A DNA stretch of 64,000 nt from positions 20,697 to 84,696 of IMG/VR virus record IMGVR_UViG_3300022699_000217. One strand, 5' to 3'. The stretch comes from a virus. Position 1 is the stretch's first letter. Each line of letters starts with the position of its first letter. The position numbers and the translations under genes were made by a program. This document shows positions 29,486-64,000 of this stretch, piece after piece. A model generated the notes under the pieces. That model was not told the DNA's origin. It was given only the letters and a program-made list of their open reading frames with translations, and ran no database searches.

Positions 29486-29601
29486 GCTCCAACGCCTCGA
29501 CCGCGCAATGGAGCCGGGCAGGTTGGCTTTTCTCCTTGGCCTGGGTTGCCTGCCCGTTTCCTTTGTGCGGTCGAGAGATCCAAAAACAAAGAGGTGACCA
29601 A

Positions 29602-31490: not shown

Positions 31491-31497
31491 GTGAGAC

Positions 31498-32949: not shown

Positions 32950-32950
32950 G

Positions 32951-43203: not shown

Positions 43204-43406
43204 AACCAACCGACCATCACCTAGTGACCCCTGCCCCGTGTTCACGGTGCGGACAGATGTGCGGCCTCCAGCAAAGCCGCGACGATCTCAGCGAGCCGTT
43301 CATGTTCACCGTTTTCTGTCCAGAGTGCGCTACCGAGGGACCGGCTCGGCGGGAAATCGCGGACGCGGTGTGCGCCTGGAACGAGGTGCAACATGCCGCC
43401 CGTTGA
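43200..43406 (+). CDS. Lar-family restriction alleviation-like protein
   Basis: PCSRCG...VFCPECATEGP....ADAVCAWN Lar pattern. Confidence 0.7.
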   Translation: MKPTDHHLVTPAPCSRCGQMCGLQQSRDDLSEPFMFTVFCPECATEGPARREIADAVCAWNEVQHAAR

Positions 43407-44331
43407 TGCCGCCCAGCGGTTGCTCATGTGGTACGGCCGCAATTATGATCGCAGGAAGCTACCATGGCGAGTCCATGGTGAATCCGTGACCCGCATCGCA
43501 CTCGTGGAGGGCCTGCTCGCACAGACCAGGGCGGGTGCGGTCGCGGATCATTATTGGCACGTGTTCGCGGGCATCGAGTACCCGGAGGATTGGCTTGCGT
43601 TGAGCATCGATGAGCGGCTGAAACGTGTTTCGCCACTCGGGCTACCCAAGCTCAAGGAAGCGGCGGTGACGGGCATTGCCCTTGGCATCCAGCACAGCGG
43701 CGCTTCTCGGCTGGCTGCGGAGCTAACCAAAGCCAAGGGGATTGGTCCGTACACCTCGTCCATGGTCGCGCTGCTGCACGGAGAAGATGCCACCCCCGTG
43801 GATTGCAACATTGAGCGCGTCGCAACGCGGTTCCTCTGTGATGACGATGCCGATGCGACCGCTTGGTCCAGTGCCATCGTCAACGCAGCGAGGCGGGAGC
43901 AGTCAACGACCGGCCATCCACCAGCTTACGAAACTATCTGCGCCGTGATGGATGTTGGGGCGCGCATCTGTACACCGACCACCCGCGATTGTCACCGGTG
44001 CCCGCTACGGCATTCGTGCGAGACGTTTCGACTCTTGGGTGCTCAATGCATTTTGCCGTTTCCCGATGGAGAGGATTTCGCGGCCTACAAAACAGCGCGG
44101 ATTTCTGAAACACCTCTGATCGAAATCGGCATTAAGAGAACCGAGTCAAGCGACCCCAACATGGAGCGATACGCCGAGGAGATCGAGGGGATGCTTTCTG
44201 TTTACGAACGAACCGAGCCGTATAAGATCGCCCGCTTAGTGATTGGCTATTTAGCCTCGCAGCTTGCCGACGAGCGGCTCTGGTGCCGGGTTTCGCCGCC
44301 GGGCGCCACCGGCGTAACCGTTTGGCGATAG
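43393..44331 (+). CDS. MutY-like HhH-GPD DNA glycosylase with [4Fe-4S] motif
   Basis: LLMWY.RN..RKLPWR; VEGLLAQT; HhH KGIGPYTS; PVDCNIER; C-x6-C-x2-C-x5-C (CTPTTRDCHRCPLRHSC). Confidence 0.82.
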   Translation: MPPVDAAQRLLMWYGRNYDRRKLPWRVHGESVTRIALVEGLLAQTRAGAVADHYWHVFAGIEYPEDWLALSIDERLKRVSPLGLPKLKEAAVTGIALGIQHSGASRLAAELTKAKGIGPYTSSMVALLHGEDATPVDCNIERVATRFLCDDDADATAWSSAIVNAARREQSTTGHPPAYETICAVMDVGARICTPTTRDCHRCPLRHSCETFRLLGAQCILPFPDGEDFAAYKTARISETPLIEIGIKRTESSDPNMERYAEEIEGMLSVYERTEPYKIARLVIGYLASQLADERLWCRVSPPGATGVTVWR

Positions 44332-44426: not shown

Positions 44427-45248
44427 ATGAAACAGGGTAATATTTTATCAGACCAGTGGCGCGAGTACAGCGCAGCGATCCCCGGCCTTAAGATCAAATT
44501 CAAGGACGAAAGCCTTTGGTGGCGCATGTCCCCGGAACCGATGCGGGCCGCGTCCACAACCCTCGGGAAAACCATTTTCCTGCCGTCAGAAAAATGGTTC
44601 GAGGCGTCGAGTGAGCGGGCCTTCGCGGTGCTTGCGCATGAGTTCCAACATGCCATGGACCGACAACGGTTCGGGTTCCTTGGTTTCTATCTGCGTTATA
44701 CGTTCCCTCAGATCATCGGGATAATCCCGCTCATCTGCGCCTGCGTGTCCATTGCGCTGCTTCCATGGCTCGCGACTGTCGGTTTGTTCATATTGACAGC
44801 CATTGCGATCATGCCGTGGCGATCATGCACCAGGACCGACATCGAGCGGCGCGGATACGCGATGACCTGTGCTGTGGATTTCCTGTTTCACGGAAAGATC
44901 CGCGAGCACACCAAAGAGTATGTCATTTCTGCGATGTCTGGGTGGTTCTACTACCGGATGGCGTCAGTGGGCGATGCGGTAAAATTGTTCCACGAGATCG
45001 AAGACAACGTCACGGGGCCACGGTGGCCACGTGGCCTCGCAGCGTTCGCGCCGACGGTCGGAGCGATGCTGGAATCTAACGCGGTCTGCGATGTCGCCAG
45101 AGCGGCGTTTCGCTGGCCCATAACTGAGAGTGCGGCAACGCCGCGCGATGGAGCGACAAACAATGAACAAAGTCTTAATTACAGGAAATCTCGGCAAGGA
45201 TCCGGAACTCCGCTACACCCAGAGCGGGACGGCCATGGTCAAGTTTAG
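44427..45248 (+). CDS. membrane-anchored zincin-like metallopeptidase (HEXXH)
   Basis: STTLGKTIFLP...VLAHEFQHAMDRQRFGFLGFYLRY, followed by two TM helices. Confidence 0.6.
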   Translation: MKQGNILSDQWREYSAAIPGLKIKFKDESLWWRMSPEPMRAASTTLGKTIFLPSEKWFEASSERAFAVLAHEFQHAMDRQRFGFLGFYLRYTFPQIIGIIPLICACVSIALLPWLATVGLFILTAIAIMPWRSCTRTDIERRGYAMTCAVDFLFHGKIREHTKEYVISAMSGWFYYRMASVGDAVKLFHEIEDNVTGPRWPRGLAAFAPTVGAMLESNAVCDVARAAFRWPITESAATPRDGATNNEQSLNYRKSRQGSGTPLHPERDGHGQV

Positions 45249-45612
45249 TGTGGCGGTTAACGAGAAATACAAGGACCAGGCGGGCGAGCTCCAAGACAAG
45301 ACGGAATGGTTCAACGTCACGGCATGGAGCGGCCTCGCGGAGACGTGCAACAAGTTCCTGAAAAAAGGCAGCAAGGTGCTCGTAGAAGGCAAGCTCCAGA
45401 CGCGGAGCTGGCAGGACGACGCCGGGCAAACCCGATACATGACGGAGGTCGTTGCGCGGGAGGTCGAGTTCCTGTCGCCGAAGGGCGAGAACAGCGGCGG
45501 CGGGAACTACGGCGGGCAGAAGCCGCCACGCCCGGCGCAGGCACGCCCGGCAGCGCCACCGCAGCAGCAGCCAGCGCCGGACTTCGGGGACGACGAAGAC
45601 ATTCCATTCTGA
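45163..45612 (+). CDS. ssb: single-stranded DNA-binding protein
   Basis: MNKVLITGNLGKDPELRYT...TEWFNV...KKGSKVLVEGKLQTRSW...DDEDIPF. Confidence 0.96.
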   Translation: MNKVLITGNLGKDPELRYTQSGTAMVKFSVAVNEKYKDQAGELQDKTEWFNVTAWSGLAETCNKFLKKGSKVLVEGKLQTRSWQDDAGQTRYMTEVVAREVEFLSPKGENSGGGNYGGQKPPRPAQARPAAPPQQQPAPDFGDDEDIPF

Positions 45613-47605: not shown

Positions 47606-47901
47606 GACGCCGACAAGATGAATACATCGACGGAATGCCGAATGCGAATGCGAGCATGGGGGAGCGGCTGGAGCACATCTACGAAGTGTTGAGCCGCGTG
47701 GAGGAGGTCGCGGAGCGCTTGCATGACAAGCACCTGCGAGGCTGGGCAATCGGCGAGGACTTCATCGATGAGACGCTTTCAGATCTGCGTGTCGCTATCG
47801 CGAAGCGGAAAACACGGGTCGGCGTCATCATCGGTAGAGAGCAAGCCATTCAACCCGTCACGCTGCGAACGAGCAACCTGGCGGACGCGGAGGGATTCTG
47901 A
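47602..47901 (+). CDS. hypothetical protein
   Basis: SD GAGGAG; ATGA coupling. Confidence 0.6.
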   Translation: MRRRQDEYIDGMPNANASMGERLEHIYEVLSRVEEVAERLHDKHLRGWAIGEDFIDETLSDLRVAIAKRKTRVGVIIGREQAIQPVTLRTSNLADAEGF

Positions 47902-48836
47902 TGACGGAGACAAGACAACGCGGTTGGATGATTCCGTACCTCATCGAAGGCGACGAGGTCTTCGGATCCGGTCGGCTAACCTGGTGGATGCGGGTGGAGC
48001 TCGAGGGACGGTTGCCCGATGAACCCATCCCGCAGATTGCATTTCGAAACGCGCATTGTACCGAGGTCGCCGACCGATACTACCTTCGCTCCTTGAGCGA
48101 TCACCTGGTCGCGAAGAAAGCGGGGGACGACCGGCGCAGCTATGCGCTGAGCGCCTATGGGGCGCTGAGTCACATGCGAGATCTCCTCGGACGGCTGGGC
48201 GGAGGGTGGTCAGCCCTCGCGTACATCGTCCGGTGGATTGCGTGGGGCCTCGGCGTGGGGTGCAACCGAGATCAAGTCCCGCACGAACCCGAGGGTGGCT
48301 GGGACGATCTGCTGCATCGATATTTCGAGCTTGGGCGGTTCCAAGCTGCGGACTGCGACATCTTCGGCGGCGTCATCGTGGACAACCTGGGGCACGGGCG
48401 CTGGGGCAACGCGAACGCCTTTTACCCGACGCCGCAGGAGGTGTGCCGCACGATGGCGCTGATGACCATCGATGGGAGTTCCAAGGTCGAGGGCGACCAA
48501 CGGCTGGCTTCGGTAACCGATCCATGCGTCGGCACCGGCCGCATGTTGCTGGAGGCGTCGAACTACTCGGTCCATCTGTACGGCTGCGACATCGACAGCA
48601 TGATGGTGGACTGTACGGCGATCAACATGGCGCTGTTCGCCCCGTGGGGGGCCTACCGCACGGAACGGCAGGCGCAGGTTTTGAGCGAGGTGCCCCGGAG
48701 AACGGAGGAGGTCGTCGCAGAGGCGGCGCGAATCCGAGAGCGGTCCGGGTTTTCGCCGGTGAAGAATCCGGCCACCTTCGATCAACACGGACAGGGGATG
48801 CTTTTCAGCTTCCCGGAGGGATGTGATGCCGACTGA
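47901..48836 (+). CDS. N-6 DNA methylase-like protein (SAM-binding motif I present, NPPY motif absent)
   Basis: FYPTPQEVCRTMA; VTDPCVGTGRMLLEA; LYGCDID...AINM; ends without an (N/D)PP(Y/F). Confidence 0.7.
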   Translation: MTETRQRGWMIPYLIEGDEVFGSGRLTWWMRVELEGRLPDEPIPQIAFRNAHCTEVADRYYLRSLSDHLVAKKAGDDRRSYALSAYGALSHMRDLLGRLGGGWSALAYIVRWIAWGLGVGCNRDQVPHEPEGGWDDLLHRYFELGRFQAADCDIFGGVIVDNLGHGRWGNANAFYPTPQEVCRTMALMTIDGSSKVEGDQRLASVTDPCVGTGRMLLEASNYSVHLYGCDIDSMMVDCTAINMALFAPWGAYRTERQAQVLSEVPRRTEEVVAEAARIRERSGFSPVKNPATFDQHGQGMLFSFPEGCDAD

Positions 48837-52961: not shown

Positions 52962-53603
52962 ATGGAAATCGTTTCATACATTAAAGACTCGATGGCAGTG
53001 GAGAACAAGGATTACGACGGTGTTCGGATGCGGTTGCAGGATGATCAATACGTCCGCCTATTGCACGCCACGCTCGGCCTCGGCAGCGAGCTTGGGGAGT
53101 TGCTCGAAATCACCGACGGCGACGAGCTGAAGATCGCCGAGGAGCTTGGGGATATTCTGTGGTTCTCCGTGCTCGCGGCCGACGCGCTTGACAAATTGCA
53201 CGCTGGAAGCTTAGCGCCGAAATACTCCTCGCCACCGATGGCATGGCAGATCATCAACGCGATGAAGACGGACTGCGATGCCGCAAACCCGCTCGTGCTG
53301 ATGAGCATGAAGGTCGAGCAGGTGCAGACGGCGGTGAAGGGGTATTTGTTCTACGGCAAAGCGTTCGTGTTCAAAGATCTGGGCGCCTGCATCGCCGACA
53401 TCACCAGGGCTGCCGCGAATGTCGGACGATCGGCAGGGTTCACGCATGAGGAAATCATGGGGTTGAACCGTGAAAAGCTGCGCGGCAAAGCAGGACGGTA
53501 CAAGGATGGCAGGTTTACCGCCGTGGCGGCCATCCACCGGGATGTCGATGCGGAGATGGCAAGCATGGCCCGGCGGAAGGGGGGGGACGACAATGGGGAC
53601 TAA
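52962..53603 (+). CDS. MazG-like nucleotide pyrophosphohydrolase
   Basis: LLHATLGLGSELGELLE...EELGDILWF; NREKL..RY..GRF. Confidence 0.82.
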   Translation: MEIVSYIKDSMAVENKDYDGVRMRLQDDQYVRLLHATLGLGSELGELLEITDGDELKIAEELGDILWFSVLAADALDKLHAGSLAPKYSSPPMAWQIINAMKTDCDAANPLVLMSMKVEQVQTAVKGYLFYGKAFVFKDLGACIADITRAAANVGRSAGFTHEEIMGLNREKLRGKAGRYKDGRFTAVAAIHRDVDAEMASMARRKGGDDNGD

Positions 53604-54270
53604 GAACCAAGCGACCGCCAGGCTCCTGCACAACACCCCGATCTGGGTTGTCGCACGAGCGGCGCGGACGTGCACCGATACCGTGAGCAAGATGGATTCA
53701 TCCCACTTTGGGGACCGCCTCGGCCCGCAGGACAGGGCGCTGATTAGCAAGCGCATCCTACGCCAAGGACAGCCCCATGATCCGCTCAATCCGGCTCATG
53801 AATCCGTGCTCGAGCACATCGTTTATACCTTCGAGCTGGAGTTCTCCCGAGCCGTCCTGCAGGAGCTGGCGCGGCACCGGCTCGCTTCGCCGACCGTGCA
53901 AAGCACCCGGTGGGCGCTGAAGCGGCTCGTCGATAAAATCGATGATGACGATCTTGACAGCTTTTTGACCCAAACCGGAGACGAGGAGATCGACGCCGCG
54001 GCCATCGAGCAGCTCAAGCTCCTGCTGGCGCAAGTGCGAAAGGGCAAGCCCAACGACCGCACGAAGTATCTGGTCGGGGAAGCCTTTCGCAGCAAGGCCA
54101 TCCTGACCATCAACGCGCGGAGCTTGCGCAACCTGTTTGTGCTGCGCACCTCGGCGCGTGCTTTGTGGGAGATCCGCCAGCTTGCGTTCGCAATGGCTGA
54201 GGCGCTCCCGGAAGAGCACCGATTCATGTTCGAAGATCGCATCCACAAGACATCAGAAATCCGACCATAG
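53593..54270 (+). CDS. thyX: FAD-dependent thymidylate synthase
   Basis: HESVLEH..YTF...SRAVLQELARHRLASPTVQSTR (RHRxxSxxxxSxR); INARSLRNLFVLR..RALWEIR.LA. Confidence 0.95.
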   Translation: MGTKNQATARLLHNTPIWVVARAARTCTDTVSKMDSSHFGDRLGPQDRALISKRILRQGQPHDPLNPAHESVLEHIVYTFELEFSRAVLQELARHRLASPTVQSTRWALKRLVDKIDDDDLDSFLTQTGDEEIDAAAIEQLKLLLAQVRKGKPNDRTKYLVGEAFRSKAILTINARSLRNLFVLRTSARALWEIRQLAFAMAEALPEEHRFMFEDRIHKTSEIRP

Positions 54271-54293
54271 ATTTGCATGAAACAGGAGGGAAT

Positions 54294-54575
54294 ATGTCAG
54301 ATCCCAACATGAATGCTGGGAGCATTGCACAGTGCCCCTATTGTGGGCACAAGGACTCGCAACACCGAAACAAGGTCGGCGAAGCCGCGGTGATGGTATG
54401 CACGGATTGTGGGCGGCTTTGGATGGCCTCGGTCATCGGGTCCGTCTATCGCGGCGAGATCGGCCACGGATACGTTCAGCTAATCTGGGAAAACAGGGGA
54501 ATGCGCGTGGACGCTGAGGGGCGTCTCCGCGTGGAGCGCTTGCCGAGCGAGATAGGGGAGGACGACGATGAATGA
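54294..54575 (+). CDS. small zinc-ribbon protein
   Basis: CPYCG...CTDCG; SD CAGGAGG. Confidence 0.6.
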   Translation: MSDPNMNAGSIAQCPYCGHKDSQHRNKVGEAAVMVCTDCGRLWMASVIGSVYRGEIGHGYVQLIWENRGMRVDAEGRLRVERLPSEIGEDDDE

Positions 54576-55266
54576 TGCAGCGATGAAACAATGGCAGCTC
54601 AGGGTTCGGGAGCTGTCGGAACGGATTATGAAGTTCGAGCAGGATTATTGCGCGGTCGCAACGGAGTTCCGCGTACAGCTCCCCGAGCCGGGCACGGACG
54701 CGGCGCGGCTGATGATCGATGCGCGGAACGCGCGCCGCCGATGCGCGGAGCTGGAGACCGAGAACCTGAAGCTGCTCGCGGAGATCGACGAGTGGAAGGA
54801 AGCCAGCGGACTGGAGTGCGGTGGCGACCCGGACGGCGTTACCCCCAAGCAGGCGCGTGACCATTGGGAGAACGTCGAGCGCATCGCACAGCAACGGGAC
54901 GACGCGGTGAACAGCTACATCAACTGCCGCCAGGACCTCGACTGTTGCAAGGAGCTGCTTGTGAGAAAGGACAAGCGGTTTGCGCCCTTCTCGTTCCCAT
55001 GGCTGGCCGAAGGCGAGGTCGCGACGGTGGCTGACATCGTCAGCGCGTACCTCCAGGCGTTTGACTTCGACGGGCTTTATAACGATGACTGCGGGTGCTC
55101 GCTGGATGATCTGGCGCCGTGCGGGGCGATCTGCGACACGTGCTCGCCGGGCAAGCAGGTCAAGGCGCCGCCCTCCACGGGATGGGATTATCTCATCGTG
55201 CCGGCCAGCGAGGTCGCGCGGTACGAGGCGGGAGAGGAGAAGGGCGATGCGGAAGAGCAAGATTGA
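54568..55266 (+). CDS. coiled-coil hypothetical protein with Cys-rich C-terminus
   Basis: FDGLYNDDCGCSLDDLAPCGAICDTCSPG. Confidence 0.65.
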   Translation: MNDAAMKQWQLRVRELSERIMKFEQDYCAVATEFRVQLPEPGTDAARLMIDARNARRRCAELETENLKLLAEIDEWKEASGLECGGDPDGVTPKQARDHWENVERIAQQRDDAVNSYINCRQDLDCCKELLVRKDKRFAPFSFPWLAEGEVATVADIVSAYLQAFDFDGLYNDDCGCSLDDLAPCGAICDTCSPGKQVKAPPSTGWDYLIVPASEVARYEAGEEKGDAEEQD

Positions 55267-56218
55267 GTGGACCGACGCAACGTGGAACCCGGTGACGGGC
55301 TGCACCAAAGTGTCGGCTGGATGCGCGCATTGTTACGCGCTACGGCAGGCAACCCGGATGCACGCCATGGGGGTCGCGGGGTATGAGAACGGGTTCGCCC
55401 CGACGTGCCACCCGAGCCGCCTCGCAGCGCCAGCGTCCTGGGTCAAGCCGCGGAAGGTGTTCGTTTGCAGCATGGGCGATCTATTCCACGACGACGTGCC
55501 GTTCGATTTCATCGAGCGCGTCTTCAAGGTGATGCTGGAAACCCCGAAGCACACCTACCAAATATTGACCAAGCGCCCGCAACGAGCGCACCTGTTTCTT
55601 GACAAGCATCTGCGGAGCGACGTGTTCAAACACTGGCCGTTTCCGAACGTTTGGGTCGGCGTGACCGCTGAGAACCAAGAAACGGCGAACGAGCGGATCC
55701 CGTGGCTGATGCGCATCCCAGCGAAGGTGCGGTTCGTCAGCGCCGAGCCGCTCCTCGGCCCCATCGCCATGACGGAGGCGATGTATGGGCAAGACCCACC
55801 GGGCATGAACGGTTTCGGATTCACGGACGGCCACGGGCACGAGGCCATGATCCACTGGGTGATCGCCGGTGGCGAGAGCGGCCCGGGCGCGCGCCCAATG
55901 CACCCCGCGTGGGCAACCGGCCTGCGGGATCAATGCATCGCAGCAGAGGTGCCGTTCCTTTTCAAGCAGTGGGGCGAATGGTGCGAATATCAGCAGTGGT
56001 TTCTTTTCCCGAACGTGCACAAATTAACGCGAAGAATCGTGCTGATGGATGGGCGCTGCGGCAAGTCCCCGGAGGATCTGGGCTACCACGGCCCGGATGG
56101 CGCGGAGTGGAATGCGCTTTGCCCAAGCGTGATGGTCCGCGTGGGCAAAAAGAACGCCGGACGCCGGCTCGACCGTGAGCTATGGACCGAGTACCCCAAG
56201 CAGGAGGTGGAGAGATGA
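55247..56218 (+). CDS. phage Gp37/Gp68 (DUF5131) radical-SAM-like protein
   Basis: [83 protein letters not shown]. Confidence 0.93.
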   Translation: [323 protein letters not shown]

Positions 56219-57742: not shown

Positions 57743-57966
57743 GCCAACGCCCCCCCTTCCGCCCCAAGGAAGCGGTTGATGCCTCGCCCTTGCACCATCT
57801 GTTGGAGCCAGCGGCATCGCCCTCAGCCGAACCGCTGGCCACCGCCGCGCAAGTCGCAACGCTCCAAGAGTCCATCGACCGCCTGGAGCGGAAGATCGCC
57901 CTCATCTTCGGTGACGCAGTCGTCATCAATGGCCGATTCGCCCATACCGGAGGGGCAAAGGGATGA
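57739..57966 (+). CDS. hypothetical protein
   Basis: ATGA coupling at both ends. Confidence 0.55.
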   Translation: MSQRPPFRPKEAVDASPLHHLLEPAASPSAEPLATAAQVATLQESIDRLERKIALIFGDAVVINGRFAHTGGAKG

Positions 57967-58199
57967 CCGAGCCGCAAAAACACGGCAACCGAGCGTTCGC
58001 CGGCGCATACCGCAAAGGGCGTGAGGCGTACATCGCTGGGGTTCTGGTGGACGAGTGCCCATACAGCGATCACCGCAAAATCAGTGGAAAGCTCACCTGG
58101 TCGCGCGCGTTTCGAACAGCCTGGCGCGACGGGTGGCAGGATGCACAGGCAGAGGATGCAAAGCTTTCGCGTGACACGCGACAAGGATGGTCAAAATGA
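57963..58199 (+). CDS. ribosome modulation factor (Rmf/CrpP)-like protein
   Basis: AYRKGREAYIAG....CPY...AWRDGWQDA matches the RMF pattern A..RGY.AG..G....CPY...W..GW..A. Confidence 0.7.
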   Translation: MTEPQKHGNRAFAGAYRKGREAYIAGVLVDECPYSDHRKISGKLTWSRAFRTAWRDGWQDAQAEDAKLSRDTRQGWSK

Positions 58200-58831
58200 A
58201 AGAGCAAAAAACAACATGCGTCCCAGGGACCACAATCCCTATGCTCCCCGGTCTCGAAAGCTTCTTGATGCCGATTGACGAGGTGCACCCCGACCCAGCC
58301 AACCCGCGCATCCTGAAGAACCTGGATGTCCTAAAGGCCAGCTTGCAACGGTTCGGGCTCCGCAGGCCCATCATCGCCAACCAGCGGGACAAGCAGATCG
58401 AAGCCGGCCATCAGACCCGGCAAGCCCTCCTGGAGCTCGGGGCAACGCATGTCCCGGTCATGTGGGCTGACGATGACCGCATCCAGGCAACCGCCTTCAA
58501 CATCGCCGACAACCGAACCGCCGAGGTGGTCTCGGACTGGGACGAGGAAGCCTTGGCGCGACTGTTGAAGGACCTAAGCGTCGACGGCGCGGTGGATGGC
58601 ATCGGCTTTGATGAGAAGCAGATGACAGCGCTCATCGATTCGTTCGCCGACGGGCAGGATTTGGATGACGAGGCGCTCCCCGAGATCGACCTGGGGGAGC
58701 CCGATGATCTGTGCGGGCGCGTCATCATCATCTACGAGGGCGAGGAGGAGTTCCGCAAGGTCCAGGACCTGCTCGGGGTCAAGCTGGGCAACAAGATAAG
58801 CTGGTCCATTGGGGAGATCGTTGATGGATGA
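58187..58831 (+). CDS. ParB/Srx N-terminal domain protein (copy 1)
   Basis: PIDEVHPDPANPR...LKASLQRFGLRRPIIAN...IEAGHQTRQA..LG...VPV...AFNIADNRTAE..WD...L. Confidence 0.9.
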   Translation: MVKMKEQKTTCVPGTTIPMLPGLESFLMPIDEVHPDPANPRILKNLDVLKASLQRFGLRRPIIANQRDKQIEAGHQTRQALLELGATHVPVMWADDDRIQATAFNIADNRTAEVVSDWDEEALARLLKDLSVDGAVDGIGFDEKQMTALIDSFADGQDLDDEALPEIDLGEPDDLCGRVIIIYEGEEEFRKVQDLLGVKLGNKISWSIGEIVDG

Positions 58832-60128
58832 CAAAGCAAAGAACCTGAGCCTAACGTACCAGAGCCCCCGCTGGTCGAACGAGATCTCGGATTGTGCGCT
58901 CCCGATGACCATCGACCAGTATTCGAATTGTTCGTATAAATGCGCCTACTGCTTCTCGCAGTACCGCCGCGGCATCGGCGGGGGGAAGGACGCCTACAAG
59001 GCGGGCAAGATCAAGGCGATCAACGTGGACAAGGTCAAGCGCCTGTTCCGTGGCGAGATCACCAACGAGAACCACGCCGCGAGCGGCCTCTGGCAGTTCA
59101 ACCAGTTCATCAAGGAGCGCAAGATGGTGCAGTGGGGTGGCCTGAGCGACCCGTTCTGCCTGTACGAGCGCAAGTACGGCCTCGGCCTCGAGCTGATGCG
59201 GTTTTTCCGGGAGATCGAGTATCAGGTTTCGTTCAGCACGAAGGGGACCTGGTGGTTGGATGACCCGCGATATGTGGAGTGCTTCGAGGGCAACCCCCAC
59301 TTCCACGTGAAAATCAGCGTCATCACCGGCGACCCGGCGAAGGCTAAGGCCATCGAGCGCGGCGGCGTGCCGTCCCCGACCGAGCGGCTGCGCGCCATCG
59401 AGCGGCTCGCCAAGATGCTTCCCGGAGACAAGCCCGTCGTGCTGCGGTTGCGGCCGTTCATCATCGGGGTGTCCAACCCGAGCTACGAGCAGTTAATCCG
59501 GGACGCCGCGAACGCTGGAGCCTCGGCGGTGAGCACCGAGTTCTTCTGCGTGGAGACTCGCTCCCACAACCAGGCGGCAGATAACTACAAGATCATCAGC
59601 GAGCAGACCGGCTTCGACGTGTACGAGTTCTATCGGAAGCACAGTCGCGGGGGCGGGTACATGCGGCTTAATCGCGCCATCAAAGGCCGGTACGTGGATA
59701 CGATGCAAGCGCTGTGCAAGGAGCTGGGGCTGGACTTCTACGTGAGCGACCCCCACTACAAGGAGCGCAGCTCCAGCGGGTGTTGCTGCGGCGTGCCAGA
59801 ATCGTGGAACTACTCGCGCGGGCAGCTTTTGGAGGCGCTCTTGATCGCCAAGGAGCGGGGCGAGGTGCACTGGGCCGACATCGCGCAGCATCTTGGCTAC
59901 GCGGACACGTTCAGCTTCCGTCGCGCGCAGGGGTTCAACACGAACAGCGAGGACGTCCGCGCCAAGTTCTTCAACGCAACCATGAAGGATTACCTGCGGC
60001 ACGGCTGGAACACGACCAAGAGCATCGCGTCCCCGTACAAGATGTTCGGCGGCGTGCTGAAGCCGGTCGAGCGCGACGGCAACGGCGACATCGTTTACAA
60101 ATTTGACCACGACCGGGCGAGCAAATGA
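58824..60128 (+). CDS. radical SAM protein, spore-photoproduct-lyase-like
   Basis: TIDQYSNCSYKCAYCF (CxxxCxxC); QWGGLSDPF..E; STKG; PSPTERLRAIERL; VLRLRPFI; extra C-terminal CCCG. Confidence 0.85.
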   Translation: MDDKAKNLSLTYQSPRWSNEISDCALPMTIDQYSNCSYKCAYCFSQYRRGIGGGKDAYKAGKIKAINVDKVKRLFRGEITNENHAASGLWQFNQFIKERKMVQWGGLSDPFCLYERKYGLGLELMRFFREIEYQVSFSTKGTWWLDDPRYVECFEGNPHFHVKISVITGDPAKAKAIERGGVPSPTERLRAIERLAKMLPGDKPVVLRLRPFIIGVSNPSYEQLIRDAANAGASAVSTEFFCVETRSHNQAADNYKIISEQTGFDVYEFYRKHSRGGGYMRLNRAIKGRYVDTMQALCKELGLDFYVSDPHYKERSSSGCCCGVPESWNYSRGQLLEALLIAKERGEVHWADIAQHLGYADTFSFRRAQGFNTNSEDVRAKFFNATMKDYLRHGWNTTKSIASPYKMFGGVLKPVERDGNGDIVYKFDHDRASK

Positions 60129-61411
60129 CACGAGCGGACTTCGTCTTCTTCTATCACCCGCACACCTACGAGACGGTGCCCTCGGCGCAGATTGGGCTTG
60201 GGATGCTGGCCATCGCCACCCATGCGAAAGCCTTGGGCGCCGCCGTGCGGGTGATCAACGCGCAGGCTGAAACGGTCGAATCGGCCATCCAGATGATTCC
60301 CCCGTGCGAGCACCTCTGCTTCTACGGGTGCCTCCTGGATGCCGACATCATCAATCGCATCGCCCACGTGGCCAAAGCCCGCGACCTAGCGCGCACCGTA
60401 TTGGTCGGTGGCCCACTTGGCCAGTCCCCGCAGTACCTCTCCGAAGATCACATCGACGTGGTCGTGGACGGGCCAGGCGAGGACTACGTGGGGAACCTGG
60501 TGCGTCAGCGTGTAACGGCCCCGCGCAACGTGTTCGGCACCCTCCACCTCCACCGCGCGCCCGCCCTGTCCGACATCAGCGGCTACCCGTTCCCGGACCG
60601 CTCCCTCGTCGAGGGCTCGCTTGGGGGGAAGATCTTCATCGGGTCCGGTGACGACGAGCAGTCCACGACGATCCTGATGTCGCGGGGCTGCCGCTACCGC
60701 TGTGCCTTCTGTAGCTCGGGCGCCAGCGCGTGCGCGCCGCTGGACTACGATCTCGACCGCATCGAGCGCGAGCTGGACCACTGCCTCTCGCTCGGCATCC
60801 GGAACGTCCGCGTCTCCGACGACAACATCATGAACGACCCCCACCGGCTCGAGCGCATCTGCGCCCTGTTCCGCGACCGGGGGATCCGCTGGCGCGGCTC
60901 GCTCCGCGTGAAGCCCAGCGCGATTTGGATGTACCGCCTCATGGTGGAGAGCGGCTGCCAGGAGCTGTCGTTCGGCATCGAGTCCGGCGACCAGCACGTC
61001 CTAGCGGTCTTGCGCAAGGGCACCAAGGTCGCGGACAACACCGCCGCCGTGCGGAACGCGAAGGCCGCGGGCGTGCCCATCGTGCGGTCCCTGATGATGA
61101 TGGGGACCCCCGGTGAGACCCCCGCGACACTCGCCCTGAACAAGCAGTGGGTGGCCGAGGCCGCCCCCGACATCGTCAGCCTGAAGATCTTCGTCCCGTA
61201 CCCCGGCACGAGCATCTTCGAGGAGCCCGCCCGGTACCGCTGCGAGCTGCTCGCCACCGGCGACTACAACAACAGCTCGTACCGCCCGGACGACAGCCTC
61301 CCCGCTGCGAACATCCGCCTGCCCGGCGTGATGACCGAGCACGATCTGACCGCCCACTTTCTGGACATGCGTGCATGGCTGGAACAACGAGGAGTTGAGA
61401 ACCGTGGATAA
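60125..61411 (+). CDS. B12-binding-domain radical SAM protein
   Basis: IGLGMLAIATH; VLVGGP; DVVVDGPGED (cobalamin-binding-domain hallmarks); SRGCRYRCAFC; SFGIESGDQ.VL..LRKG; MMGTPGET; FVPYPGTSIF. Confidence 0.9.
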   Translation: MTRADFVFFYHPHTYETVPSAQIGLGMLAIATHAKALGAAVRVINAQAETVESAIQMIPPCEHLCFYGCLLDADIINRIAHVAKARDLARTVLVGGPLGQSPQYLSEDHIDVVVDGPGEDYVGNLVRQRVTAPRNVFGTLHLHRAPALSDISGYPFPDRSLVEGSLGGKIFIGSGDDEQSTTILMSRGCRYRCAFCSSGASACAPLDYDLDRIERELDHCLSLGIRNVRVSDDNIMNDPHRLERICALFRDRGIRWRGSLRVKPSAIWMYRLMVESGCQELSFGIESGDQHVLAVLRKGTKVADNTAAVRNAKAAGVPIVRSLMMMGTPGETPATLALNKQWVAEAAPDIVSLKIFVPYPGTSIFEEPARYRCELLATGDYNNSSYRPDDSLPAANIRLPGVMTEHDLTAHFLDMRAWLEQRGVENRG

Positions 61412-62159
61412 CCATCCCCCCGTCGTCATCCTAAGCCGGGAGCGCGCCACCATCGGGACCACGTGGCGCCTGTTCCCCGAGGCCACCCTGATCGTTCACG
61501 AGTCCGAGCTGGACGCGTACCGCGCCGCTGGGCACACCGGCACGATCTGGACGCACACCAAGGACCGCAGCCCCGCAATCCGCAACGTCATCCTGGACCG
61601 CATCGGTGCCGGGAACGAGGTGGTGATCATGGACGACGACATCAAAGCCGTCGGCCACTTCGAGACCCTCGCCCCCGGGCGCTACAAGGCGGCCAAGCTC
61701 CCCGGCCCGGCCTTCCTCGACGAGATCGCCAAGGGGTTCGCCCTCGCCCGCAAGCACGGCTACCACCTCTTTGGCGTCGCCCCGACCACCAACTGTATGA
61801 ACTACAACCCCCAGCGGACCCTCAAGACCGGCGTCTTCATCAACGGCCCGCTCATGTGCATCCGCGTCCGCGACGATCTCCGCTTCGACGAGGCCCTCCC
61901 GCTCAAGTGCGACTACGAGTTCACCGCGCGCACCATGGCCGCGAAAGCGGGCGTCTTCCGCATGGACCATCTCTGGCAGGACAACGACTTCGACTCGATG
62001 CCCGGCGGCCGCGCGTGCTATAAACGACCGGAGGACGCCGAGCTCTCGTTCCACGTCCTCCTGGACCGATACCCCCGCTACTTCCGGCCCAACCCCCGGC
62101 GGCAGTGGGAGGTCATCCTGAGCGACCCGGCGACCCGGAAACGCAAGGCCGCCCGTTAA
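61404..62159 (+). CDS. TAGT/GREB1-like (GT-A fold) glycosyltransferase
   Basis: VILSRERA...LIVHESELDAY...RNVILD...VVIMDDDI; FDEALPLKCDYEF; MPGG; RYPRYF..NPRRQWEV. Confidence 0.8.
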   Translation: MDNHPPVVILSRERATIGTTWRLFPEATLIVHESELDAYRAAGHTGTIWTHTKDRSPAIRNVILDRIGAGNEVVIMDDDIKAVGHFETLAPGRYKAAKLPGPAFLDEIAKGFALARKHGYHLFGVAPTTNCMNYNPQRTLKTGVFINGPLMCIRVRDDLRFDEALPLKCDYEFTARTMAAKAGVFRMDHLWQDNDFDSMPGGRACYKRPEDAELSFHVLLDRYPRYFRPNPRRQWEVILSDPATRKRKAAR

Positions 62160-62200
62160 CCTCGGCGCCCCGCGCCCCGACGCAGTGAAGGAGCCCGACC

Positions 62201-62758
62201 ATGACCGACACCCCAACGCCCGAATCGGCCCCCGAAGCAAAGCCGAAGCGCAAGCGCAAACCCCCGAAGCCTATGGCGGAACGGCGCAAGTCCACCCCGA
62301 TTATTTCCGTCGAGAAGTACAACGAGATGTTCGCCGCCTACCTCGAGCGCCAGAGCGCGGCTCACGTGGCAAAAACCTGTGAGGTTGCGCAGCGTACCGC
62401 CCGGCGCTACATCGACCAGGGCGACCCCAAGCGGAAGCTCATGGCCCTCAAGGACCGACTCGCCAAGGTGAACGACCTCGCCCGGCAGCGTGCCGACTAC
62501 GATCTAGTCAAGGCCCGCGCCGAGTTCCAGAAGGCCGCCCGCGCCGCGTTCATGAAGACCGCGCAGGCCATCCAGCTCGTCGACGCCAAGGACCTGACCG
62601 CCGACAAGATCCCGGAGCACCTGAACAAGCTGCTCACGGTCATCGAGCGGACCTTCGGGGAGGCCGAGCACAGCCACGAGGTGCGGGGCAAGTTCTCCAA
62701 CTGGACGCTGGCGGAGATTCGGGCGTTCTTGGATGAGGGCATCGACCCCGATAAGTGA
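62201..62758 (+). CDS. terminase small subunit candidate
   Basis: HTH SAAHVAKTCEVAQRTARRY, helical oligomerisation region, C-terminal EHSHEVRG...TLAEIRAFL; position among ParB/modification genes. Confidence 0.55.
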   Translation: MTDTPTPESAPEAKPKRKRKPPKPMAERRKSTPIISVEKYNEMFAAYLERQSAAHVAKTCEVAQRTARRYIDQGDPKRKLMALKDRLAKVNDLARQRADYDLVKARAEFQKAARAAFMKTAQAIQLVDAKDLTADKIPEHLNKLLTVIERTFGEAEHSHEVRGKFSNWTLAEIRAFLDEGIDPDK

Positions 62759-62864
62759 AAAAGGATGCAAGATCCATGAATAGAGTGCCGCAAAAGCCGG
62801 GGCTACAATCCACCGGGCAGCATAAATAACCAAAGAGGCCCCACTCGGGCCGTGCGAGGCGCAG

Positions 62865-63485
62865 ATGAAGAAGACGAAGAAGACCCCCACCCCCCTCCGC
62901 GTGCCAGGCACCGAGGTGGCTTTGCTCCCCGGGCTCAAGCCCCTCCTGGTCCCCATCGATGACGTGCACCCGGACCCTGCGAACCCCCGCGTGTTGAAGA
63001 ACCTGGAAGCGCTCAAGGGCAGCCTGCGCCGGTTCGGCCTGCGTCGCCCGATCATCGCCAACGAGCGCGACGGGCAGATCGAGGCCGGGCACCAAACCCG
63101 GCAAGCCCTCGTGGAGCTCGGGGCGACCCACATCCCGGTGATCTGGGCCGACGATGACCGCATCCAAGCGACGGCGTTCAACATCGCGGACAACAAGACC
63201 GCCGAGGTGGTCGCCGACTGGGATGAGGATGCCTTGACCCGCCTGCTCACCGACATCGCGCAAGCAGGCGATCTGGATGGTATGGGCTTCGACGACAAGG
63301 AGGCCGCCCGGCTGCTTGCGGGCTTGGAGGAGCCGCCTGAGGACGCCGCGTCGGAGGAGGATGCCTCCGAGGCCCCGCAGGAGATGTACCGCATCATGAT
63401 CGAATGCGATGACGAGGCGCATCAGGCGGAACTGCTTGCCCGGTTTATGGAGGAGGGCATCTCATGCCAGTCGTTGATCTTATAG
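62865..63485 (+). CDS. ParB/Srx N-terminal domain protein (copy 2)
   Basis: About 79% identical (hand count 93/118) to copy 1 over the N-terminal domain; different C-terminus (YRIMIECDDEAHQAELLARFMEEGISCQ). Confidence 0.9.
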   Translation: MKKTKKTPTPLRVPGTEVALLPGLKPLLVPIDDVHPDPANPRVLKNLEALKGSLRRFGLRRPIIANERDGQIEAGHQTRQALVELGATHIPVIWADDDRIQATAFNIADNKTAEVVADWDEDALTRLLTDIAQAGDLDGMGFDDKEAARLLAGLEEPPEDAASEEDASEAPQEMYRIMIECDDEAHQAELLARFMEEGISCQSLIL

Positions 63486-64000
63486 CCGAGGTGCCGCTGT
63501 ACGACAGCGTGCGGGTGCGGCAACTCTCGGGGATGTTCGACGTGCCGCTGGGGCAGAAGCTGCGGCGCGAGTGGCACGCCGAGTTGCCGCTGGACGAGGC
63601 CCCGTGGTCGGTCGGCTTGATTGTCGGTCCGTCTGGATCGGGTAAGTCGCTGGTCGCGCGGGAGCTGTTCGGCCCGCTGGTCGATCACAAGCTCGAGTGG
63701 GCGCCGGACAAGGCGGTCGTCGACTGCTTCAACCGGAACCTGTCCGTCCGTGAAATCACCGACGCGTGCTCGGCGGTGGGGTTCAACACCATCCCAAGCT
63801 GGCTCAAGCCCTTCCGGGTGCTCAGCAACGGCGAGCAGTTCCGCGTGGACCTGGCCCGACGCTTGCTCGAGGTGCCCCCGCCTGTCGTCGTCGATGAGTT
63901 CACCTCGGTCGTGGACCGGCAGGTCGCCAAGATCGCCTCCCACGCGGTGCAGAAGTATGCCCGCAGCGGCGACACGCGGTTCGTCGCCATCAGTTGCCAC
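63464..64000 (+). CDS. ABC-type ATPase of the phage ATPase-GNAT family (5' part; runs off the window)
   Basis: Translated by hand from ATG 63464 (missing from the ORF track because no stop lies in the window): MPVVDLIAEV...VGLIVGPSGSGKS...WLKPFRVLSNGEQFRVDLAR...VVVDEFTSVVDRQVAKIAS. Confidence 0.88.
   Translation, partial: MPVVDLIAEVPLYDSVRVRQLSGMFDVPLGQKLRREWHAELPLDEAPWSVGLIVGPSGSGKSLVARELFGPLVDHKLEWAPDKAVVDCFNRNLSVREITDACSAVGFNTIPSWLKPFRVLSNGEQFRVDLARRLLEVPPPVVVDEFTSVVDRQVAKIASHAVQKYARSGDTRFVAISCH

Follow-up and report, generated by a model that had tools for sequence, protein, structure and literature searches.

A candidate DNA-hypermodification locus with two ParB-headed modules ahead of the terminase gene of a 95-kb phage

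Thymine in phage DNA can be modified after replication by ParB-dependent loci built around 5mYOX (TET/JBP) thymine dioxygenases (O'Toole et al., PNAS 2026, PMC13229309; Burke et al. 2021, PMC8256090), of which genes 1-5 of Gordonia phage CaiB provide a cultured example (PMC9302106). Thymidine hypermodification has also been described in phages M6, ViI and PaMx11 (Lee et al. 2018, PMC5889632; 2021, PMC8989533). Cobalamin-dependent radical SAM methyltransferases of class B include Fom3, GenK, PhpK and HpnR.

The locus described here can be read as one for post-replicative DNA hypermodification, with two ParB-headed modules just before the terminase gene. In this reading a radical SAM enzyme (rSAM1) would make an acceptor on thymine without oxygen, a TAGT-family glycosyltransferase would glycosylate it, and a B12-dependent radical SAM enzyme would tailor the sugar. 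This is the favoured reading, at about even odds.

Gene layout and the second ParB module

The window that was analysed is a stretch of 64,000 nucleotides (positions 20,697 to 84,696 of IMG/VR record IMGVR_UViG_3300022699_000217) from a complete phage genome of 94.7 kb. The cassette sits just ahead of the DNA-packaging genes, and all of its open reading frames were found on the + strand at these positions of the window:

57963..58199, +, small protein of the Rmf/CrpP family, 78 aa, opens the run of overlapping genes
58187..58831, +, ParB1, ParB/Srx N-domain protein of 214 aa, predicted to target rSAM1 to DNA or to activate it
58809..60128, +, rSAM1, radical SAM enzyme of 439 aa with the spore photoproduct lyase (SPL) fold, predicted initiating enzyme on thymine in DNA
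60125..61411, +, B12-rSAM, radical SAM enzyme of 428 aa with a B12-binding domain (class-B type), predicted sugar tailoring
61371..62159, +, TAGT-family GT-A glycosyltransferase of 262 aa, predicted 5-hydroxymethyl-pyrimidine DNA glycosyltransferase
62201..62758, +, HTH-like basic protein of 185 aa, candidate small terminase subunit (TerS), unproven
62865..63485, +, ParB2, ParB-N protein of 206 aa, heads the ABC-ATPase/GNAT module
63464..64000 in the window and on to genome position 85335 (L003:161-1336), +, ABC ATPase of 391 aa with a GNAT-like C-terminal half, predicted second, acyl-type DNA modification

The ABC-ATPase gene is followed by a T7-type TerL gene (6e-24) and then by the portal gene. 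A first-pass annotation, made from the sequence alone, had given the genes from ParB1 to the ABC ATPase, their order and the overlap coupling from 57963 through the glycosyltransferase, and all of this held. The 78-aa gene and ParB1 overlap by 13 nt, ParB1 and rSAM1 by 23 nt (or 8 nt if rSAM1 begins at its probable start, the ATG at 58824), rSAM1 and B12-rSAM by 4 nt (ATGA), and B12-rSAM and TAGT by up to 41 nt. The 78-aa protein scores 30.8 bits against NCBIfam NF041886, above the cut-off of 28, and weakly matches Pfam RMF. Gene content is shown directly, and the arrangement of ParB1, rSAM1, B12-rSAM and TAGT is not due to chance, because five further contigs carry the same set of four, which makes six genomes with this one. 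The set is retained even away from the terminase (L092, L107).

Both ParB proteins match phrog_620 (ParB1 at 9e-32, ParB2 at 8e-37), and ParB1 also matches TIGR00180 at 2.6e-5. They are 70% identical over the first 150 aa, with unrelated C-terminal tails, and their genes have 77% nucleotide identity over 404 nt. ParB2 is paired with the ABC ATPase (PF00005; phrog_11143 at 1.6e-50), and ParB+ABC-like pairs are found in Gordonia phages AnClar and Jace. The earlier ABC-ATPase(/GNAT) assignment held; it agrees with look-alikes in the ESM Atlas and with the prediction, already in the literature, that an ABC+GNAT fusion acylates a DNA base (PMC7824862). The GNAT half has no Pfam match; residues 195-391 resemble viral GNAT and ABC_tran+Acetyltransf_1 clusters (0.91; TM 0.82), and the GNAT label, which rests only on these look-alikes, is a lead that may or may not be borne out. 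This second module would be an independent DNA modification of the previously predicted acyl type.

The earlier call of a TerS-like gene held only in part. An HTH-like gene exists, and its 185-aa product belongs to no family in Pfam, PHROG or NCBIfam. In the ESM Atlas it resembles viral proteins of HTH_23/HTH_Tnp_1 type (0.94-0.95), and in sister phages L010 (4e-63) and L090 (8e-62) a homologue lies ahead of ParB. That it is TerS is possible, as a lead only.

The radical SAM enzymes and the glycosyltransferase

The first radical SAM enzyme had been called SPL-like, and this held at the level of structure. The sequence matches PF04055 weakly and NCBIfam Rv2578c/PA0069 (COG1533-type) at 2e-10, and no sequence-level SPL membership was found by family profile searches. 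For an AF2 model with pLDDT 90.9, SPL is the top structural match (Foldseek 5e-7), with a VIA Z of 19.4 over residues 2-314 (270 residues aligned) against 16.1 for the next family. With SplB (PDB 4FHC and related) rSAM1 shares the radical SAM barrel fold, the CX3CX2C motif and a Tyr before the third Cys; SPL acts on thymine in DNA by way of a thymine allylic radical. In an alignment of 192 relatives of rSAM1 the CX3CX2C motif (C41/C45/C48) is 99% conserved, and four extra cysteines are conserved too (C247, C326 and C327 at 100%, C29 at 98%). Where SPL has Y98, the relay for hydrogen-atom return that follows the third Cys, rSAM1 has an invariant Phe (F49). Unlike SplB, rSAM1 also has an added C-terminal domain of 125 aa, for which only weak winged-helix (DNA-binding) matches are found (Z <= 5.4), and it stands in a modification rather than a repair context. 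No SPASM/twitch auxiliary-cluster domain, which could accept an electron, is seen. These features of fold, motif and conservation are shown.

The rSAM1 family comprises more than 1100 protein clusters, with 383 IMG/VR contigs and 69 loci in representative genomes, and no homologue was found among 50,697 GenBank phages; it is a large family of uncultured phages. The hosts are overwhelmingly strict anaerobes, methanogens included. Some relatives are labelled "DNA repair photolyase" by JGI.

The SPL fold and that label would suit a phage-borne spore-photoproduct lyase or other thymine-dimer lyase, engaged in true DNA repair. This explanation can be set aside almost entirely, given the lack of sequence-level SPL membership, the exchange of the relay Tyr for Phe, the strict coupling and occasional fusion of rSAM1 to modification enzymes, and hosts that mostly live in dark, anoxic guts.

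The next two genes had been read as a cobalamin-dependent radical SAM enzyme and a TAGT, and domain matches uphold both. B12-rSAM matches PF04055 at 7.5e-17 and, weakly, the B12-binding PF02310, and its C189/C193/C196 are invariant. It has the N-terminal B12-type domain and radical SAM core of class-B methyltransferases. The best family matches, among them PhpK at 4e-29 and further HpnR, HpnJ and the MCR-Gln methylase, are C- or P-methyltransferases. The protein nevertheless lies outside all curated class-B families (its best score, 101 bits, falls below the cut-off of 600), in a phage-specific family of ~70 clusters that is always beside glycosyltransferases. Its gene is immediately upstream of TAGT in 6/6 cassettes, and relatives with 40-51% identity sit among GT1/GT17, O-methyltransferase and sulfotransferase genes. 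It had earlier been proposed to methylate the base; tailoring of the sugar is more probable, because relatives elsewhere occupy glycan-tailoring clusters. The predicted role, which is inferred, is modification of the installed sugar, most likely by C-methylation.

TAGT matches PF20691 at 27.8 bits (cut-off 27.5) and phrog_842 at 1.6e-7. Its DxD motif, D88-D89-D90, is intact, and 38 homologues conserve it together with R25, N72, N141 and D181. Orthologues in L090, L091, L092, L106 and L107 match at 1e-61 to 1e-137.

The ParB-rSAM1 core, its partners and known acceptor-makers

Neighbourhood analysis, which had been suggested with the first-pass annotation, gave an invariant core of ParB and rSAM1 joined to alternative sets of enzymes from families that work on 5-hydroxymethyl-pyrimidines (5hmU or 5hmC) in DNA; two of these enzymes are found fused to rSAM1. 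This is shown as co-occurrence. Among well-flanked loci, ParB accompanies rSAM1 in 54/54 from IMG/VR and 48/48 from representative genomes. TAGT is a downstream partner of the core in 27 of the 54 and 12 of the 48, and a P-loop kinase with an ADDT amino-acid:DNA transferase (PF18724) in ~23 and ~32, respectively. An AGT-like GT-B is found in the core neighbourhood of sister phage L010 and GT1/GT2 beside the core in L014, and SAM synthetase is another downstream partner. Fusions join rSAM1 to TAGT (P0115, L016, L019, L084) or to HMUDK_HMUD1 (PF18748), a 5-hmU DNA kinase (P0084). Minimal modules consist of ParB and rSAM1 (L022, L023, L033), and no other conserved unknown family of at least 200 aa was found to recur near the core.

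It could be argued that the cassette is not directed at DNA, such that the glycosyltransferase and B12-rSAM decorate virion proteins, the host envelope or a small molecule, while ParB and rSAM1 function in packaging or repair and have no more than a permissive insertion site in common with them. Accessory genes are known to gather ahead of the terminase gene, and B12-rSAM relatives occur without ParB or rSAM1 in large glycosyltransferase/O-methyltransferase/sulfotransferase clusters that are possibly protein- or glycan-directed. This is very improbable, given that TAGT belongs to a family of DNA glycosyltransferases, that rSAM1 is fused to TAGT and to HMUDK and co-occurs with ParB in 100% of well-flanked loci, and that the genes are translationally coupled and stay together away from the terminase.

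The first-pass annotation had seen no TET/JBP, hydroxymethylase, DpdA or PurZ in the window and had named a TET or hydroxymethylase elsewhere in the genome as refuting its reading. The absence held and extends to the complete genome, in which no TET/JBP, ThyA-type hydroxymethylase, C5-methyltransferase, DpdA or PurZ was found. The Tet_JBP search, which recovers CaiB as positive control (6e-6), found 0/80 in related records, 24 of them at least 90% complete. Thymidylat_synt, with M6 gp58 as control (5.5e-20), was found in 0/30, and 20 near-complete relatives are without ThyA-like genes. Five genomes at least 98% complete that carry the kinase and ADDT have neither a TET nor a ThyA-like gene. 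This absence of known acceptor-makers is shown. C5-methyltransferase is present in 2/31 related records, as is ThyX; with C5-methyltransferases nearly absent, 5mC is not available, and thymine is implied as the substrate, as in the 5mYOX loci. A ThyX gene lies at 53470-54270, just upstream of the span 58187-64000. ThyX is not known to act as a hydroxymethylase.

A different possibility that cannot be dismissed is that rSAM1 acts late, as a tailoring enzyme like the N-alpha-GlyT isomerase gp53 of M6 or by some other radical rearrangement. The acceptor would then come from an unrecognised enzyme (for example a highly diverged 5mYOX or some unknown protein), or TAGT and the kinases would use a different acceptor. 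The sole studied relative is indeed that isomerase (PMC8989533), a remote but detectable homologue (hhalign 86%, E 5e-6; ~20% identity). The cultured Clostridium phage CS266P4 has ParB and TAGT before the terminase without TET/JBP or rSAM1, which leaves room for an acceptor-maker that has escaped recognition or for another TAGT acceptor. PF12851 can miss divergent 5mYOX proteins, and thousands of 5mYOX-like contigs have no Pfam annotation (PMC13229309). Against this, a tailoring enzyme is not expected as the one constant partner of a sugar branch, a phosphate/amino-acid branch or no branch, minimal ParB+rSAM1 modules exist, and no other conserved unknown family of at least 200 aa recurs near the core. 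The absence of TET from the 24 near-complete relatives, of ThyA-like genes from the 20, of both from the genome itself and of either maker from the five kinase+ADDT genomes also speaks against it.

The proposed pathway and its relation to known systems

In the favoured reading, with rSAM1 as initiator, ParB1 would bring rSAM1 to duplex phage DNA or activate it there. The 5'-deoxyadenosyl radical of rSAM1 would remove a hydrogen from the C5-methyl group of thymine and, since Phe stands in place of the relay Tyr, rSAM1 would not give it back as SPL does. The allylic radical would be oxidised, with SAM as the oxidant, and trapped by water to yield, with no need for O2, 5-hydroxymethyluracil or a comparable hydroxyl handle. 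TAGT would glycosylate this handle to a base-J-like product, and B12-rSAM would then act on the sugar; in a less likely variant, it would act ahead of TAGT and methylate the hydroxymethyl carbon. Which base is the substrate, how it is hydroxylated, in what order the steps run and what the B12 enzyme does are all inferred, without biochemical or nucleoside data. To our knowledge, there is no direct DNA precedent for water hydroxylation after radical oxidation, and M6 gp53, the one SPL-like enzyme that has been characterised in phage DNA modification, acts downstream as an isomerase and not as an initiator. Base activation without TET/JBP followed by glycosylation, as first proposed, is supported as far as computation goes, with no chemistry demonstrated.

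Alternatively, rSAM1 might initiate modification by other chemistry or on another base, with a product other than 5hmU, such as a covalent adduct through Cys, another C5/C6 adduct or a handle without a hydroxyl. The four extra conserved cysteines could be nucleophiles or radical carriers, no auxiliary-cluster domain is seen, and the radical SAM superfamily catalyses many types of reaction. This is unlikely, in that HMUDK, ADDT, TAGT and the AGT-like glycosyltransferase are known only with 5-hydroxymethyl-pyrimidine DNA (PMC8989533; Pfam names) and 5mC is unavailable.

If initiation by rSAM1 is correct, a radical SAM enzyme occupies the place of the oxygen-dependent TET/JBP oxidases of known pathways. 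The layout is that of 5mYOX loci, in which a ParB-like gene, a base-activating enzyme and then glycosyltransferases or kinases/transferases lie directly upstream of the terminase (ParB-5mYOX-GT-terminase, PMC13229309). Modification would likewise be post-replicative, and here too ParB retains its N-domain but has a divergent, cognate-specific C-terminus. In contrast to those loci, there is no Fe(II)/2-oxoglutarate dioxygenase, and an SPL-fold radical SAM enzyme stands in its place; the mostly strict-anaerobe hosts fit an O2-independent substitute for the dioxygenase. No report of a B12 radical SAM enzyme in 5mYOX-type pathways was found in the literature searched.

With M6, ViI and PaMx11, relatives of this locus have in common the 5-hmdU DNA kinase, ADDT/aGPT-Pplase2 and an SPL-like radical SAM enzyme (M6 gp53). 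Those phages make 5-hmdU before replication by a ThyA-like dUMP hydroxymethylase and use gp53 late, whereas here the hydroxymethylase is absent and the genome carries the glycosyl rather than the amino-acid branch. The second module shares its two-domain architecture, ParB neighbour and terminase adjacency with the predicted ABC-ATPase+GNAT acyl-modification enzyme of Iyer et al. (cited in PMC7824862), but here it adjoins another ParB-headed module in the same phage. Finally, the predicted product, glycosylated 5-hydroxymethyluracil made on DNA, resembles that of base J synthesis by JBP1/2 and the glucosyltransferase JGT, and the glycosyltransferase belongs to the TET/JBP-associated family (PF20691). 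The locus differs from base J synthesis in that the oxidase is not a JBP and the sugar is probably tailored further by B12-rSAM.

Gene layout at the packaging genes

The source record is a complete IMG/VR phage of 94,753 bp with direct terminal repeats of 99 bp, of which the window covers 20697-84696. A cassette of ParB1, a radical SAM enzyme (rSAM1), a B12-type radical SAM enzyme (B12-rSAM) and a TAGT glycosyltransferase is found near the packaging genes, with a second module formed by ParB2 and an ABC ATPase.

Genes of the cassette and its surroundings, in window positions
53470-54270, + strand: ThyX flavin-dependent thymidylate synthase (PF02511 2.2e-32); the cassette begins about 4 kb further downstream
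57963-58199, + strand: Rmf/CrpP family protein, 78 aa
58187-58831, + strand: ParB1
58809-60128, + strand: rSAM1
60125-61411, + strand: B12-type radical SAM enzyme
61371-62159, + strand: TAGT
62201-62758, + strand: HTH-like protein, 185 aa
62865-63485, + strand: ParB2
63464 onwards, + strand: ABC ATPase, 391 aa, with its stop beyond the window end

Downstream of the ABC ATPase lie a T7-type TerL, a portal gene, a Mu-F-like head protein and a prohead protease. The first-pass annotation had described the genes from 57963 to the ABC ATPase, with an overlap-coupled run, at the packaging module, and the observation stands because all genes are present on the + strand and the first five, from the 78-aa gene through TAGT, overlap by 4-41 nt. 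Scanning 56.2-64 kb for promoters and terminators gave results no better than those on shuffled sequence. Elevated GC3 in the cassette was considered as a sign of transfer but dropped, given that other late genes show the same GC3. A metagenome run search returned small shares (<=0.16) in marine-sediment and hot-spring samples, which support no habitat claim.

Other genes on the + strand of the window include a replication and recombination set (29536-34363 and 45130-45612) of YqaJ exonuclease, ERF annealase, DnaB helicase and SSB. The proteins scanned did not include a recognizable DNA polymerase. A MutY-like adenine glycosylase (43393-44331), unusual for a phage with probably modified DNA, matches TIGR01084 at 5.4e-22, far under the cut-off, and has no Pfam match. 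An N6-methyltransferase-like protein (47901-48836; PF02384 1.4e-5) and a small, restriction-alleviation-like zinc protein of the Lar/YnfU type (54273-54575; NF038384 1.4e-7) are also present. A DUF5131 (phage Gp37/Gp68) protein (54980-56218; 5.9e-98), for which a later true start is probable because the domain starts at residue 92, also weakly matches "radical SAM mobile pair protein A" (TIGR04471, 2.8e-11), and could be a third radical-SAM-like enzyme of the genome.

The fold of rSAM1 and its neighbors

rSAM1 is weakly recognized by sequence models, both by PF04055 (1.5e-3) and by the Rv2578c and PA0069 radical SAM models (2e-10). Membership in the sequence models for spore photoproduct lyase (SPL) is not met, with Rv2578c/PA0069 matches of 40 bits versus cut-offs of 430 and 360, and a profile search against PDB sequences returned no SPL, just spurious phosphoprotein matches. 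The AlphaFold model is confident (pLDDT 90.9), and its closest solved fold is the SPL-type partial TIM barrel (Foldseek E 5e-7); residues 2-314 align with SPL at Z 19.4 and rmsd 3.3 over ~270 residues, and the next family follows at Z 16.1. The first-pass description of the enzyme as SPL-like therefore holds at the level of the fold but not of sequence membership.

The cysteines of the CX3CX2C motif (C41, C45 and C48) are 99% conserved in 192 non-redundant relatives, among which the additional cysteines C247, C326 and C327 are conserved at 100% and C29 at 98%. The residue after the third cluster cysteine is Phe49, conserved in at least 97% of the 192 relatives, whereas SPL has at this position a relay tyrosine for H-atom return (Y98 in G. 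thermodenitrificans); the register was set by the SPL motif CMGHCHYC at residue 90 (PMC8989533) and by the Y98F entry 4k9r. Loss of this relay tyrosine would suit an enzyme in which the H atom is not handed back. The C-terminal ~105 residues (about 335-439), folded alone, gave weak matches (Z <=5.4), nearly all to winged-helix nucleic-acid-binding domains, and assignment as a SPASM/twitch auxiliary-cluster domain was rejected. That no auxiliary-cluster domain is visible in rSAM1 counts against its proposal as the initiating enzyme of the pathway.

A second objection to that proposal is that the one characterized SPL-like enzyme of phage DNA modification, gp53 of phage M6, acts late, as an N-alpha-GlyT isomerase (PMC8989533). 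The relation of rSAM1 to gp53 is remote (hhalign probability 86%, E 5e-6, 172 columns, 20% identity), and M6 was not recovered by tblastn with rSAM1. The context differs as well: the gp53-type setting of a dUMP hydroxymethylase, the 5-hmU DNA kinase 5-HMUDK, the amino-acid:DNA transferase ADDT and a PLP decarboxylase is not met by the rSAM1 locus, and no kinase or ADDT homologue is found near the cassette in this genome.

The rSAM1 family comprises more than 1166 protein clusters at 50-63% identity and was detected on 383 IMG/VR contigs by an alignment-based search; a scan of IMG/VR with the single rSAM1 sequence found nothing, so an alignment is needed to detect relatives. A tblastn search of 50,697 GenBank phages gave a single weak match of 26% and no homologue; there is no cultured phage model. 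Species-representative genomes hold 69 loci, three of them in cultured strains, and nearly all are in obligate anaerobes of gut and rumen, with hosts including Methanobrevibacter and Methanomethylophilaceae. The family is testable now, because cultured lysogens exist in Segatella copri HDE04 and H-2632 and in Selenomonas ruminantium S137. In HDE04 the prophage lies at about 1.934-1.948 Mb of NZ_CP152346.1. Contigs from archaeal metagenome bins of Methanomethylophilaceae and Methanobrevibacter (L109 and L114) carry homologues at about 51-52% identity, in L114 together with ParB and SAM synthetase; on this basis the module seems to extend to archaeal viruses.

ParB is present in all 54 IMG/VR loci with adequate flanks, TAGT in 27, SAM synthetase in 16 and a P-loop kinase in ~23, mostly alongside ADDT (PF18724). 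Five of the 54 appear to have ParB alone, although two of these five do have glycosyltransferases: GT1/GT2 in the contig L014 and an AGT-like GT-B in the sister phage L010, the closest relative. Truly minimal modules of ParB and rSAM1 were also found. Independent genome loci show the same invariant ParB (48/48), with kinase in 32/48, ADDT in 23/48 and TAGT in 12/48. Kinase, ADDT and DNA glycosyltransferases alternate around an invariant ParB and rSAM1 pair and are sometimes fused to rSAM1, as in rSAM1-TAGT fusions (protein cluster P0115 and contigs L016, L019 and L084) and a fusion to the 5-hmU DNA kinase domain PF18748 (protein cluster P0084). Kinase, ADDT and DNA glycosyltransferases are each known exclusively for their use of 5-hydroxymethyl-pyrimidines in DNA (PMC8989533, PMC5889632, PMC8256090). 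Genes near rSAM1 that resemble glutamine amidotransferase (L021:7430-8068), the heptose kinase/adenylyltransferase of sugar activation (L085:3131-3562) and APH-like kinase (L047:1379-2458) point to a wider diversity of products.

Proposed sugar tailoring and the second ParB module

The radical SAM core of B12-rSAM is supported (PF04055, 62.4 bits, 7.5e-17), and all 29 sequences compared keep its CX3CX2C cysteines C189, C193 and C196. The N-terminal B12-binding domain is seen weakly (PF02310 at 18.3 bits, below the 32.1 cut-off), and several homologues carry PF02310. Alignment to the HpnR model covers residues 24-370, and the top families are PhpK, HpnR, HpnJ and the MCR-glutamine methylase. 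The family is small, with ~70 clusters. The full set of ParB, rSAM1, B12-rSAM and TAGT is found in this genome and in five related loci (L090, L091, L092, L106 and L107), and the B12 gene is always directly upstream of, and overlapping, a closely related TAGT; L106, in which rSAM1 is displaced, is no exception.

Relatives of B12-rSAM at 40-51% identity sit beside GT1/GT17 glycosyltransferases, methyltransferases of the SAM and TylF types and sulfotransferases, and neither rSAM1 nor TET accompanies them. Because a glycosyltransferase is the common denominator of these neighborhoods, B12-rSAM likely tailors the sugar, most probably by C-methylation; this is inferred from context, as is methyl transfer via methylcobalamin itself. 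Methylation of the hydroxymethyl carbon is possible, but less likely. The first-pass annotation had suggested radical methylation of the base, and its call of the enzyme held for the radical SAM core. The sugar assignment suggests C-methylated DNA glycans, which are not described for DNA in the literature searched. Phage clusters of GT1/GT17, TylF-type or other methyltransferases and sulfotransferases that hold B12-rSAM relatives without ParB, rSAM1 or TET (L093-L098 and the P0157 contig) may be elaborate glycan pathways, their acceptor unknown.

TAGT narrowly meets the gathering score of PF20691 (27.8 versus 27.5 bits; homologues 35.5-40.7 bits) and has a GT-A DxD motif at D88-D89-D90, with D88 conserved at 86% and D89 at 100% in 38 homologues (D90 not scored separately), so that the first-pass call of a TAGT glycosyltransferase held. 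Its action on 5hmC or 5hmU in DNA is inferred only from family name and context.

ParB1 and ParB2 match phage ParB-like families (9e-32 and 8e-37) and are 70% identical over the first 150 residues, with unrelated C-terminal tails, a pattern that would be expected, from sequence alone, for a common nucleotide-binding domain with partner-specific tails. The first-pass reading of an ABC ATPase, possibly with GNAT, held for the ABC domain (PF00005 26-28.8 bits; phrog_11143 1.6e-50). GNAT rests on look-alikes of the C-terminal half in the ESM Atlas (0.91) and on structural similarity (TM 0.82) to viral GNAT and ABC+GNAT fusion clusters, without a Pfam match. The published prediction for the ABC+GNAT architecture is acylation of a DNA base (PMC7824862). 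The ParB2 and ABC-GNAT module recurs alone in the actinophages AnClar and Jace.

A presumed acceptor base without a known source

Six-frame searches of the whole genome gave no match to Tet_JBP at E<=1 and found no ThyA-type synthase/hydroxymethylase, C5-methyltransferase, TGT/DpdA or PurZ-type adenylosuccinate synthetase. The first-pass annotation had seen no TET/JBP, hydroxymethylase, DpdA or PurZ in the window and had held that a TET or hydroxymethylase elsewhere in the genome would refute its proposal; the absence held and now extends to the whole genome. As positive controls, the ThyA-type search recovered M6 gp58 (5.5e-20) and the Tet_JBP search recovered the TET/JBP gene of Gordonia phage CaiB (6e-6; PMC9302106). 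Tet_JBP was found in 0/80 rSAM1-related records, 24 of which are >=90% complete, and a ThyA-like gene in 0/30. Five genomes that are >=98% complete have kinase and ADDT with no known source of 5hmU. Divergent thymine dioxygenases of the TET/JBP type (5mYOX), however, can go unrecognized by Pfam (PMC13229309), which weakens the argument from an absent TET.

Two other sources were considered. 5mC was rejected as a substrate because C5-methyltransferase is rare (2/31 rSAM1-phage genomes) and absent from this genome. ThyX was rejected as a hidden hydroxymethylase of general use because just 2/31 genomes have it; it may instead boost dTTP supply for thymine-directed modification. The cultured Clostridium phage CS266P4 (OP172778.1), which infects an anaerobe, carries ParB_N and TAGT directly before terminase (L103:6160-7615) with neither TET/JBP nor rSAM1. 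Its acceptor source is unexplained, which leaves room for an acceptor-maker not yet recognized or for a different TAGT acceptor.

Given the user families around ParB and rSAM1, the absence of known makers, the 5mYOX-like layout and the SPL fold, the simplest interpretation makes rSAM1 the initiating enzyme, an O2-free supplier of a thymine handle. This is an inference without biochemical data. In it, rSAM1 would install the handle on thymine without O2, with SAM as the proposed two-electron oxidant, also an inference here. SAM acts in this way in radical SAM dehydrogenases, which is established chemistry. No solved radical SAM enzyme other than SPL is known to handle a thymine allylic radical in DNA. 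To our knowledge, there is no route to 5-hydroxymethyl-pyrimidines in DNA without O2 (TET/JBP) or a nucleotide-level hydroxymethylase of the ThyA type, and no paper in the full-text literature searched links radical SAM enzymes with TAGT, 5hmU formation or ParB-headed loci.

A bolder reading, which is somewhat less likely than not, is that rSAM1 is an O2-independent thymine C5-methyl hydroxylase (5hmU synthase) that would act on finished duplex DNA with its cognate ParB, as an anaerobic counterpart of JBP/TET, and that in this phage the product would receive a sugar before its C-methylation by B12-rSAM to an undescribed hypermodified thymine. The large census, the positive controls, the fusions and the conserved cysteines make this reading more likely, though it is still an inference. 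If true, a radical SAM route would explain restriction-resistant hypermodified DNA in phages of strict anaerobes (among them gut Bacteroidota, Bacillota and methanogens), and would be a reaction type new to the radical SAM superfamily in which an SPL-like thymine allylic radical is diverted from repair to oxidation. The ParB-activator principle would reach past dioxygenases, and a thymine-directed, O2-independent DNA-oxidizing enzyme might become available for biotechnology.

ParB-headed modules are interchangeable at the pre-terminase site, because sister Gordonia phages carry alternatives there: ParB-TET-kinase in CaiB or ParB-HNH-ABC-methyltransferase in AnClar. The two are of the same genus (Sourvirus), with terminase nucleotide identity of ~76%. 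The CaiB region (L177:1-3926) encodes ParB, TET/JBP, a hypothetical protein, a kinase and an oxidoreductase, and that of AnClar (L104:1-2962) ParB, HNH, an ABC-like protein and a "tRNA-methyltransferase".

Loci of the order ParB-5mYOX-GT-terminase were described in 2026, with ParB as the activator of a thymine dioxygenase that works on duplex DNA (PMC13229309). Although the present locus is without the Tet_JBP Fe(II)/2OG dioxygenase of these cassettes (no match at E<=1), it has their layout, and their adjacent ParB-like activator, downstream glycosyltransferase or kinase and neighboring terminase are all met here.
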